DNA from: a phage
Sequence record: PQ400055.1
Direction: 5' to 3' (one strand)
Length of the DNA stretch: 64,000 nt
Made by a program: the position numbers and the translations under genes
Notes under the pieces: model-generated
What the model was told of the DNA's origin: nothing
Seen by the model: only the letters and a program-made list of their open reading frames with translations
Database searches by the model: none
Shown: piece after piece, positions 17,918 to 21,231 of the stretch
Layout of the letters: every line of letters begins with the position of its first letter
Numbering within the stretch: position 1 is the stretch's first letter

Positions 17918-18920
17918 TTAGTAATGGCTAAAACCTTCGGTTACATCTTCAACCACATAGTAACGATGACAGCGCATTTTGGCATTCGCATAATCTTTCG
18001 GGATACTTACAACGTGACGCGGATCAACTTTACATTTAATGATTCGGCCTCGTCCACCGCCATAGTGCGGAATATAGTGTTTAGCTGCAACGTGGAGGCC
18101 ATTAGAGCAAGTGCGATCATCATCTGGGTCCACGTCTTTACGCTTCATTTTAACCGTGCGACCTGGGCTATTATCAAACGTATGCGTAAAGAAATCTTTA
18201 TAATCAACATCAACACGTTTCCATGCATAGAAACAACCATCTTCCACGATCTCAATGTCGTTGTGCTCTAAGAAGTCAAATAGACGATCTACGGCCTTAC
18301 GGCTAGGGTTTTTCTTGCACTTCTCAAAGAAGTTAAGATAGTGCGTATATGGCTTATTCTCTTTAATCGACTCCACAACTCGACGAGTCAGATTATTATC
18401 AAGAACAATATTATGATAATACACAATACCATTTTCGATACGGAAAGCGCCGTGATAATATACTTCAACCGCTTTCTTAATGTCAATCAGCGTAATAGCT
18501 TTGATGAAATCATTATGTTTAATCGCTTCCAGTGCTTCCTTAAAGTTAACATGTGATGGATCAGCAGTATAAACAATGTCACCACATGTAATAGTAATAA
18601 ACTTAGTTGAGGCTATGGCTACGATTTTTGAGGAAGTAGTTACGGGCTTTTTTTGCGCGTTCACCGCCTTTTCCTTTACTGGTTTTACGGCGTGCTTTAC
18701 GTTTTTCTAGTGCCTTGCGACCTTCCGCTACTGCGTCTTTCTGAATCAGTAATACACGGGAGGCAGTGCGACGAGATACACCAAATGCTGCCGCAAGTGC
18801 TTCGCGGGTAGTAAACTTACCTTCGCCCCACTGTTTAGCCAGTTTGATTTGTTTCGCAGAATCCAGACATTGAACGTTACGGTCAGAGACGGTGATTTTT
18901 GCTTTAGTCATAGTATTCAT
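17918..18920 (-). pseudogene. rIIB: rIIB split across two frames at an A7 run (frameshift mutation, homopolymer sequencing error, or recoding)
   Basis: N-terminal ORF 18603..18920 has the rIIB-like HTH (REALAAAFGVSRRTASRVL vs T4 QELADWQGVSVDTIRRVL); C-terminal ORF 17918..18664 matches T4 rIIB (RLFDFL..DIEI.EDG.FYAWK, FDN.PG..VKMKR.DVDPDD, DYA.AKMR); removing one A at 18648-18654 joins them as ...ERAKKPVTTSS..., ~333 aa. Confidence 0.8.
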
Positions 18921-18973
18921 TCCTCTATTAGTTGGGCGACTATTGCCGCCCGATTCACATCATTATACCAGAA

Positions 18974-19105
18974 TTATTTTGCTTCGACAACCTTGCGGAT
19001 TGTGCGGTCTGATACATTATAGATTCGTGCCAGTTCGCCTTTAGTCAAACCGCGAGCGTATTGTTTACGGATGGTTTCTTTCTGGATGGCGGTCAGTTTA
19101 GTCAT
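18974..19105 (-). CDS. small HTH protein resembling the rIIB N-terminus (not in ORF track)
   Basis: 43 aa, MTKLTAIQKETIRKQYARGLTKGELARIYNVSDRTIRKVVEAK; RBS aagaggtg; resembles T4 rIIB LTKNEQAEIVKLYSSGNYTQQELADWQGVSVDTIRRVL. Confidence 0.45.
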   Translation of the reverse strand: MTKLTAIQKETIRKQYARGLTKGELARIYNVSDRTIRKVVEAK

Positions 19106-19116
19106 AATATCACCTC

Positions 19117-21231
19117 TTAAAATTTAACATTCTTAACCAGTTTCATAAAGTCTTGTGCGCGTTTGTCATTATGCAGAATACGATACCAGTTATCGACAAT
19201 ATCATACAGTAACGGGCTATTCTCTTTAAACTTCGCACAAACTGCTTTAATTCGTTCGTTTGCTACCGTGAATTTTTCATCACAAATCTTTTTAGTTTCT
19301 TCGTCCATAATCCAACGAGTACGAAGGAGTAACTTGGAAACCTCTTTATTATAATGACGACCGTACAGTCTGTCAATAAATTCTGGAACACAGCGTTCTA
19401 GTTCATCGTCATGAAACAACATAGTGATCACACCCAGATATTCGCCATACCCCAGATGATTGGTCTTAACCTTCTTAGCCAGACCAGCCAGCTTACCGCG
19501 AACAAATTCTAGCGCACATTCCAATTGTTCGTCAACGAGATATTTTTGTGTCTCGTTTCGAGTAATAATATACTTTGTTACCCCGAAGTAGTCAAGCGCC
19601 GTGTGTAATGTATTTTCACTATGGATCGATTTACGACTACGGCTTTCGAATGCATCACCTACGCGGAACATGTGCAAGCCTGATAACTCGCGAATCTCTG
19701 CCGCTTTCATGTGATGGCTGGTTTTATGCCAACTGTCACCAATCTTTTCCATGATATACACGTTAGGCAGCTTAGGAGTCGCTTCACGTTGTGTACGTGT
19801 ACGCTCGGTCTTCTCCGGTTTAACTGCTTTAGCACGCAGATCATCGGCCTCAGAAACTTTAATCACGGTCATTTCAGAATCATCATAATACTGTTTGATG
19901 TACTCGAAAGTTTCCATATGTTTTTCGTTGCGCTGACGGAACACCAGTACCTTTTTATTGATGCCGTATTCCTGGACCATACCGTTAAGAGTCAGTGCGC
20001 GTAGTTTCGGTTTATCGGTATCATCAATAAGACACATAATATCTTCTTTATGCATCCATACAAAATGCGTAATGTTGTATTGACTGCTAACGAAAGCAGG
20101 GCGCAATTTACTGATTGTGTGACGAGTACGATACAGAGTATACACCTGACCTTCTACGTCATTAGGCGAATCTTTACCCGCATTCACAAACTTATTATAG
20201 ATTGCTACCGGATCATCCCACTGCCCGATCTTACCCATCTTGCTAATAATATTGCGTTGAGTCGATGAATACTCGCTCATAAATTGCGCAAGTTTACGCT
20301 CTGTTTTAATGTTGGCGATCTTCTCTTTGACCTTTTCCAACATCATTTCATTGATTTCTGCAATGCGTTTTTCGATGTTCGCTTTAGTCTCAATTGACAA
20401 GTGAACTTCTTCACGCGATGGCATCAGGTCCAGATCACCCAACTCAAAATTAATGTAAATGGTCTGGTGCTGGCGGTTTACAGCTTCTAACCATGTTCCG
20501 CGAACATATTCATACGGGATCGGATACTGGATCTTACCCATGATTGCATATACTACATAGGAATCGTTATCACGCCCATTACAAACATAATAATTATCAA
20601 AGCTAGGGAAATAATTAATTTCGATTGCATTGATATTAGGTTTGTGTTCCCCAAAATGACGCAGTACAAATTGCGCTTCTCGATGCCATGTCTGAATATC
20701 TTTTTCTTTCACCGGAATAGTGATTTTCAGACCATTGTCTTCATAGGTCGGTTCGTCGAAAATCTGCACCATTTTCGGCATAGAGTTTTGCACAAATGCC
20801 GTAAAGCCATAAGCGCGACCATTGTAATAGTTTACGATTGTAAAGGTGTCAGTGTAGCTATAAGCAGATTTCGCACCTAAACCAAAAGACCCGATATAGT
20901 CATTAGTCTGGTCTTTTGTTGATTCAAAGTAAACCGTAAACAGTTGTTCTAATTCTTTCTTAGACGGAATACCAGTACCATAATCACGCACAGAGAAATA
21001 CGGTTCGATTGCAGTCGGTAAATGAATATCAAACGGACGATCTAAGGTTCCGGCTTCTTTGTGAGTGTCGGTAGCATTGCACGAATACTCACGGACGCAA
21101 GCACGCTCACAATATTGATAAGTGTTCTTAGAAAGCACCATAAAAGCCTTGCTACTTGCTTTCAGTGAAAAATCAACCGCACCGCTCAGGTCACTGCCAA
21201 ATACTTCTTCATTATCAATATGCATTTTCAT
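19117..21231 (-). CDS. rIIA: rIIA protector from prophage-induced early lysis
   Basis: 704 aa (T4 725 aa); N-terminal block DYGTGIPSKKE...YIGSFGLGAKSAYSYTDTFTIVNYYNGRAYGF matches T4 rIIA DFGPGMS...[32 protein letters not shown]. Confidence 0.9.
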   Translation of the reverse strand: MKMHIDNEEVFGSDLSGAVDFSLKASSKAFMVLSKNTYQYCERACVREYSCNATDTHKEAGTLDRPFDIHLPTAIEPYFSVRDYGTGIPSKKELEQLFTVYFESTKDQTNDYIGSFGLGAKSAYSYTDTFTIVNYYNGRAYGFTAFVQNSMPKMVQIFDEPTYEDNGLKITIPVKEKDIQTWHREAQFVLRHFGEHKPNINAIEINYFPSFDNYYVCNGRDNDSYVVYAIMGKIQYPIPYEYVRGTWLEAVNRQHQTIYINFELGDLDLMPSREEVHLSIETKANIEKRIAEINEMMLEKVKEKIANIKTERKLAQFMSEYSSTQRNIISKMGKIGQWDDPVAIYNKFVNAGKDSPNDVEGQVYTLYRTRHTISKLRPAFVSSQYNITHFVWMHKEDIMCLIDDTDKPKLRALTLNGMVQEYGINKKVLVFRQRNEKHMETFEYIKQYYDDSEMTVIKVSEADDLRAKAVKPEKTERTRTQREATPKLPNVYIMEKIGDSWHKTSHHMKAAEIRELSGLHMFRVGDAFESRSRKSIHSENTLHTALDYFGVTKYIITRNETQKYLVDEQLECALEFVRGKLAGLAKKVKTNHLGYGEYLGVITMLFHDDELERCVPEFIDRLYGRHYNKEVSKLLLRTRWIMDEETKKICDEKFTVANERIKAVCAKFKENSPLLYDIVDNWYRILHNDKRAQDFMKLVKNVKF

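Follow-up and report, generated by a model that had tools for sequence, protein, structure and literature searches.

How rIIA and rIIB work has been a puzzle for about 70 years. RIIB is treated as a specific transcription factor by Aravind's group (PMC7824862), and it is the trigger sensed by a bacterial gasdermin/CARD defence, which phage T6 escapes through rIIB frameshifts (PMC10312443). The closest described counterparts of the gene reported here are the N-terminal helix-turn-helix (HTH) modules of RIIB in T4 (residues ~5-50) and in Klebsiella phage JD18 (residues 1-45). In a set of 80 IMG/VR loci, the typical RIIB carries one such module at its N-terminus, as in T4, and the most distant homologues carry none. 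The PDB holds no solved RIIB structure.

The locus studied here contains, between rIIA and rIIB, a 43-aa ORF that shares with the T4 and JD18 modules their family (41-53% identity), a three-helix HTH and the position directly behind the rIIA stop. Unlike them, it is not fused to an RIIB core, its own stop codon following helix 3. It is also followed by a 62-nt spacer with a promoter-like site and a hairpin, and the phage's own RIIB keeps a second, more divergent HTH.

The window (the whole stretch of 64,000 nucleotides analysed, from record PQ400055.1) comes from a Krischvirus (RB49-like) phage. In this region its identity is 99.8% to Escherichia phage FL37 and 99.7% to Krischvirus RB49, and 59 records of the genus match it at 95-99% identity. 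An earlier note on this DNA had described a minus-strand ORF with a good ribosome-binding site between rIIA and rIIB, encoding an HTH protein. Its position and translation (MTKLTAIQKETIRKQYARGLTKGELARIYNVSDRTIRKVVEAK) are exactly as given there, and its location is borne out by rIIA upstream and by the rIIB start at 18911, as annotated in relatives. The features of the locus are as follows.

19117..21231, minus strand: rIIA (704 aa), upstream neighbour of the 43-aa ORF, with its stop codon at 19119..19117
19376..19348, minus strand: predicted promoter TTGACA-17-TATAAT, a perfect sigma-70 consensus, inside the 3′ end of rIIA
19116..19110, minus strand: Shine-Dalgarno sequence GAGGTGA, 4 nt 5′ of the ATG of the 43-aa ORF and adjoining the rIIA stop
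18974..19105, minus strand, including the stop codon: the 43-aa ORF, a free-standing HTH of the RIIB N-terminal type, with its ATG at 19105..19103
19096..18983, minus strand: match to the RIIB N-terminal profile within the 43-aa ORF
18990..18962, minus strand: promoter-like site TTGTCG-17-TGgTATAAT, with the -35 in the last codons of the ORF and the -10 just after its stop
18951..18934, minus strand: G+C-rich hairpin GGGCGGC-AATA-GTCGCCC without a U-tract, in the 62-nt spacer before rIIB
17918..18911, minus strand: rIIB, with a separate Shine-Dalgarno sequence and ATG; intact in relatives, where it encodes 330 aa
18732..18878, minus strand: second HTH module, the fused copy at the rIIB N-terminus, located by profile

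The good ribosome-binding site stood up to comparison. A GAGGTGA or GGTGA lies 3-4 nt 5′ of the ATG, directly 3′ of the rIIA stop, in all five lineages that carry the gene. The ORF of the window starts 11 nt past the rIIA stop, and the layout is the same on contigs L006, L007, L094 and L096. Translational coupling of rIIA to the 43-aa gene is plausible.

The earlier note had also called the ORF unannotated. This fails, since all 59 Krischvirus records name it as a hypothetical protein (for example RB49p274, NP_891845; kvi_140; KNU01_gp160; BN201_0276 in GEC-3S). Its family is PHROG 15481, labelled "unknown function", which it matches over its full length (residues 1-43 on profile positions 1-43, E=3e-34). 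RB49p274 and the PHROG 15481 entries are the same family as the window's protein, 98-100% identical in the 59 isolates, but give neither a function nor a link to RIIB; no such link or function appeared in the public annotations examined, and the papers examined do not mention the ORF. What is already known is thus the ORF as a hypothetical protein and as PHROG 15481. Apparently unstated before, in the annotations and literature examined, are its membership in the RIIB module family, its exceptional conservation, and the variable number and position of the module.

The main profile used to assess kinship with RIIB was built from 43 N-terminal modules of RIIB, all taken from phage lineages outside the Krischvirus clade. 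Against the six-frame translation of the whole window, the 43-aa ORF was the best match (41.7 bits, E=6.4e-12) and the phage's own RIIB N-terminus the second (25.9 bits), the rest of the window reaching at most 7 bits. The profile therefore finds both of the modules that the earlier note had proposed for this locus, one of them free-standing. A six-sequence seed profile of RIIB N-termini scored the ORF at 36.6 bits. Generic HTH families in Pfam and PHROGs gave it at most 26 bits, and PHROG 609 matched it weakly, at its HTH positions. Pairwise searches agreed: BLASTP returned 53% identity to residues 3-42 of JD18 RIIB (E=1e-8) and 41% identity to residues 7-45 of T4 RIIB (E=5e-4). Among the tblastn matches listed from 50,697 phage records, most of those outside Krischvirus were rIIB N-termini from many genera, individually marginal at E about 0.04-3.

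The homology to canonical RIIB reaches within two residues of the start codon. MTKLTAIQKETI aligns with (MA)VTCLSEIQKDAI of JD18 RIIB, with MTKLT... opposite VTCLS..., so the ORF holds both the genomic and the sequence position of a canonical rIIB start. The RIIB core (KFISIT...FDNSPG...CSRGLHV...DYNDAKMR) is absent from the ORF, which stops after helix 3, and sits in the next gene, 62 nt downstream. The 43-aa protein is therefore not an RIIB protein. As a side observation, T4 "EAK-RPKVTISGD" resembles Krischvirus "EAK*...MT-KAKITVSDR"; this likeness, in a very short motif, hints at a duplicated unit of HTH plus beta-motif.

The resemblance to the rIIB N-terminus claimed in the earlier note thus holds at family level. 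Its stronger form, close paralogy to the phage's own RIIB copy, does not. The free and fused modules of the window share 32% identity over 38 profile-aligned positions, and the two modules inside one genome share 26-35%, so that the RIIB N-termini of JD18 and T4 are closer to the 43-aa protein than its own fused neighbour is. BLASTP against the phage's own RIIB (the intact kvi version) left the HTH regions unaligned (E=27), so this kinship is visible through profiles only. The free family also prefers a "T-even-type" sub-profile (40-47 bits vs 24-28 bits), and the fused modules of L006 prefer an "RB43-type" (RTIGRV) sub-profile. Low identity and differing sub-profiles together point to an old duplication or to a free copy gained by recombination; the free/fused comparison spans about 38 aligned positions, too few to choose between the two.

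The gene is strongly conserved. With tblastn, the protein was found at at least 95% identity in 59 Krischvirus records, which is the number that hold the region, and the ORF is intact in all 59; the conservation in relatives that the earlier note had named as a check was thus found. Five further clusters were recovered from a collection of 5.8 billion proteins (98, 86, 86, 77 and 69% identical). Across five lineages there are six variants of the protein, every one of 43 aa, and the order rIIA, 43-aa ORF, rIIB is kept on contigs L006, L007/L008, L094/L095 and L096. L006 is a metagenomic sister lineage of Krischvirus. Identities between lineages were as follows.

43-aa protein: 70-86%
RIIB: about 54-61%
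Fused HTH module: 37-66%
rIIA: 36-40%
Topoisomerase II medium subunit: 67%, L006 vs Krischvirus (the nearest known relative of L006)

Nei-Gojobori counts gave dN/dS values of 0.02-0.33 across comparisons of the 43-aa gene, with synonymous sites close to saturation. Three comparisons illustrate this range.

Window vs L094: synonymous 21.2/31.0, non-synonymous 8.8/98.0, dN/dS about 0.05
L094 vs L096: synonymous 14.5/31.0, non-synonymous 1.5/98.0, dN/dS about 0.02
Window vs L006: synonymous 13.8/28.8, non-synonymous 20.2/94.2, dN/dS 0.33

The segment from helix 2 through the turn to helix 3, TKGELAR[IV]YNVSDRTIR[KR]VVE, is unchanged across variants save for two conservative positions. We conclude with high confidence that the 43-aa ORF is a real, conserved gene of the RIIB N-terminal module family.

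The predicted structure agrees with the HTH assignment. AlphaFold2, run on a six-sequence alignment, gave a model with a pLDDT of 90.7 and helices at residues 6-18, 22-28 and 33-41. The protein matched Pfam CENP-B_N (PF04218) at 26.0 bits, above the gathering cutoff of 21.2 (E=7e-6), together with many weaker HTH families; the CENP-B_N match is a generic assignment of fold class only. In Foldseek searches of the PDB, the nearest structures were DNA-bound HTH domains of IstA, gamma-delta resolvase, CENP-B and NarL/LuxR proteins, with query-normalised TM scores of 0.72-0.79 (0.78 for CENP-B, 1hlv_A) and rmsd values of 1.0-4.4 Å; all E-values exceeded 0.1, as expected for a query of 43 residues. 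Among predicted viral structures, the protein's own family came first, followed by many phage "HTH DNA-binding" proteins. One of these, the RIIA-RIIB protein of RB43, superposes through its HTH with a TM score of 0.92 and an rmsd of 0.8 Å. In these models the fold class is clear yet not diagnostic, as structure search does not separate RIIB-type HTHs from those of transposases, resolvases and homing endonucleases. The HTHs of transposases, resolvases and CENP-B (PF04218, HTH_7, HTH_23/28; PDB 8b4h, 1hlv, 1gdt) have the same tri-helical fold. They are, however, parts of larger proteins, whereas here the HTH is the whole protein, and in sequence it is closer to RIIB N-termini than to these domains.

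The surroundings of the gene suggest how it might be expressed. The consensus promoter predicted inside rIIA lies 271 nt upstream of the start of the ORF, and three other lineages have similar sites at a distance of 220-270 nt; if active, it would start a transcript on which the 43-aa gene is the first complete cistron. The predicted promoter that overlaps the end of the ORF probably drives rIIB, and the same site is marked in the annotation of GEC-3S. Hairpins of 7-10 bp, G+C-rich and without a U-tract, occur in the spacer of every lineage (window, L006, L007, L095 and L096), each with a different stem sequence. Such a hairpin could be an mRNA 3′-end or stability element. The rIIB promoter predicted for L007 and L095 has its -10 hexamer inside the hairpin loop. 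Rfam matched no RNA family in 18500..19500.

We examined how the module is distributed around RIIB. It lies outside the rIIB ORF in 2 of the 80 diverse IMG/VR loci, both of them Krischvirus-like contigs. Metagenome and IMG/VR scans with the 43-aa alignment revealed no further lineage with a free-standing copy, and L090 was the only new locus of interest. Departures from the usual arrangement are seen in two metagenomic loci.

4483..4614 of L006 (ENA ERZ27260015 contig k141_60519): free-standing 43-aa gene, additional to three fused modules
4685..6064 of L006: RIIB of 459 aa with three tandem N-terminal HTH modules
1813..3093 of L090 (JGI Ga0272441_10032161): distant RIIB of 426 aa, its core 32% identical

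In the L090 protein the core is N-terminal and the HTH is C-terminal, and ELARAYNVSDRTIRRI matches the recognition region of the free family at 13 of 16 residues. With such variable number and position around the RIIB core, the module may act as an independent unit that accompanies RIIB; judged from sequence, the pattern suggests that the unit needs only to be present together with RIIB. A profile search of 1.84 billion representatives found a single cluster belonging to the 43-aa family. The strongest non-family matches in that search were proteins of 220-720 aa with four to seven tandem similar HTH modules and no RIIB core (P0006-P0019), which rank high because repeat scores add up. Small HTH proteins matched by profile search (L099, L100 and L093) lie in unrelated genomic contexts and were set aside.

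The rIIB gene of the window differs from that of its relatives. A run of seven A residues at 18648..18654 (on the minus strand) produces a +1 frameshift that divides the gene into ORFs of 105 and 248 aa, whereas all 59 Krischvirus records have six A residues and an intact 330-aa rIIB. A sequencing or assembly error and a real rIIB-null contingency variant are equally possible explanations; in rIIA of T4, runs of six A residues act as contingency loci (bioRxiv 10.1101/2025.10.21.683753).

Several further observations concern rIIB in this and other phages. In this clade the linker that joins the fused HTH to the RIIB core (~18650..18730 on the minus strand; kvi RIIB residues 60-88) is extremely K/R-rich, for example EGRKALEKRKARRKTSKGKGGERAKKP. 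In L096 (657..986) the linker has a longer lysine-rich tract, and the linkers of T4 and JD18 are not basic. Phage RB43 (L014 1248..4397, IMGVR_UViG_638276010, 180,500 bp; UniProt Q56C47) has a 1049-aa RIIA-RIIB fusion ORF. It results from a single additional T, about 30 nt ahead of the rIIA stop, which puts rIIA in frame with rIIB. Its close relatives L015, L011 and L012, which do not have the extra T, have separate genes with overlapping stop and start codons (TAATG). At L059 21..975 (IMGVR_UViG_2700989062), a frameshift in the rIIB linker leaves the HTH (86-aa ORF) and the core (271-aa ORF) in different frames; we rejected this locus as an independent split of HTH and core, as it is an ordinary frameshifted rIIB.

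What does the 43-aa protein do? We think it reasonably probable that it is a small DNA-binding protein acting in trans as a partner or regulator of the rII system; for DNA binding as such, we see about even chances. The small DNA-binding regulator that the earlier note had put forward thus stays the best reading. This role is favoured because the protein is strongly basic (its sequence has 11 K/R and 4 D/E), because its fold resembles DNA-bound HTHs and because RIIB is classed as a transcription factor. The protein would be made early, alongside RIIA, with transcription starting at upstream promoters and at the consensus site inside rIIA. Its helix 2-turn-helix 3 would then act in trans on a target like that of the fused module, most probably DNA. 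Some points weigh against this reading. A monomeric HTH of 43 residues without a dimerisation element may bind DNA only weakly, the HTH fold is generic, and the free-standing arrangement is limited to one clade among the 80 diverse rIIB loci. In T4, the N-terminal segment of rIIB is reportedly dispensable for growth on K-12(lambda) (deletion r1589; Crick et al. 1961), and the role of the module may therefore lie outside the classic Rex phenotype.

Other readings of the same data must be weighed. As the main rival, the protein could be an adaptor or decoy in protein-protein contacts, docking on RIIA or RIIB as a third subunit that provides the ancestral N-terminal module non-covalently, or titrating a host factor or sensor that recognises this module of RIIB. 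By Rosetta-stone logic, a module that is N-terminal, C-terminal, repeated or free around the RIIB core would fit such a role, as would a conservation exceeding that of rIIA and RIIB and the sensing of RIIB by the gasdermin/CARD system (PMC10312443). We regard it as unlikely, given that the high positive charge and the DNA-bound HTHs among the nearest folds argue against it. A generic small transcription regulator of the phage, for instance a repressor or activator of early genes, lying next to the rII genes incidentally, would agree with weak Pfam and PHROGs matches to Mor/late activators, sigma-70 region 4 and DNA-binding proteins. Yet outside its own family the protein matches the RIIB N-terminal profile best, at 41.7 bits against at most 26 bits for generic families, and the gene keeps its place between rIIA and rIIB in all five lineages, which makes this reading quite improbable.

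Two further explanations would deprive the ORF of a separate function, and both seem to us very improbable. The earlier note had considered a duplication remnant, that is, a non-functional product of partial rIIB duplication or recombination that has stayed open by chance. The ORF is indeed short and spans only the first domain of the neighbouring gene's family, at a junction prone to rearrangement, as seen in the rIIA-rIIB fusion of RB43 and in frameshifted rIIB genes. A decaying remnant is nevertheless excluded in practice by strong purifying selection (dN/dS far below 1 with synonymous sites near saturation) and by the same length, start, ribosome-binding site, stop and context in five lineages whose rIIA proteins are only 34-44% identical; the 43-aa protein is better conserved than either neighbour, and no isolate among the 59 has lost the ORF. 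Alternatively, the ORF could be the true N-terminus of RIIB, joined to the rest by bypassing (as in T4 gene 60), frameshifting, readthrough or splicing. It lies at the canonical rIIB start position, its stop codon is followed by a hairpin that superficially resembles the gene 60 take-off site, and in the window an AAA before the stop and an AAA at rIIB codon 3 form a possible take-off/landing pair. This pair, however, is present in the window and L007 only; the ORF of L006 ends with GCT, and L095 has no AAA nearby. We therefore rejected a gene 60-type bypass, as the take-off and landing codons are not conserved among relatives. The spacer varies in length and sequence between lineages and holds a promoter-like site, rIIB has its own Shine-Dalgarno sequence and ATG, and Rfam shows neither an intron nor another RNA family.

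Returning to a trans-acting partner of the rII system, a broader version can be considered, in which the 43-aa protein is a third trans-acting rII component that keeps the ancestral function of the module, namely the targeting of RIIA/RIIB to DNA or to a host partner. We advance this tentatively and consider it doubtful. If it were true, the fused copy would have been freed to diverge, and what classical rII genetics treats as the "dispensable" B1 segment would be a functional unit that can be separated and studied by itself.

In this clade the module occurs naturally detached and is better conserved than either rII protein, which makes it easy to get at. As a peptide of 43 residues it can be made synthetically, assayed for DNA or protein binding, deleted and provided in trans.

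The arrangement can finally be compared with split genes of T4-like phages. In the T4 topoisomerase genes 39 and 60 and in nrdA-a/nrdA-b of Aeromonas phage Aeh1, a domain is likewise fused in some relatives and encoded by a separate cistron in others. Here, an old duplication of the RIIB N-terminal module was most likely followed by the setting apart of one copy through a stop codon, a promoter and a hairpin; alternatively, the free module could have been acquired by recombination. Because the downstream rIIB retains a copy of the module, the locus points to duplication and separation rather than to a simple fission.
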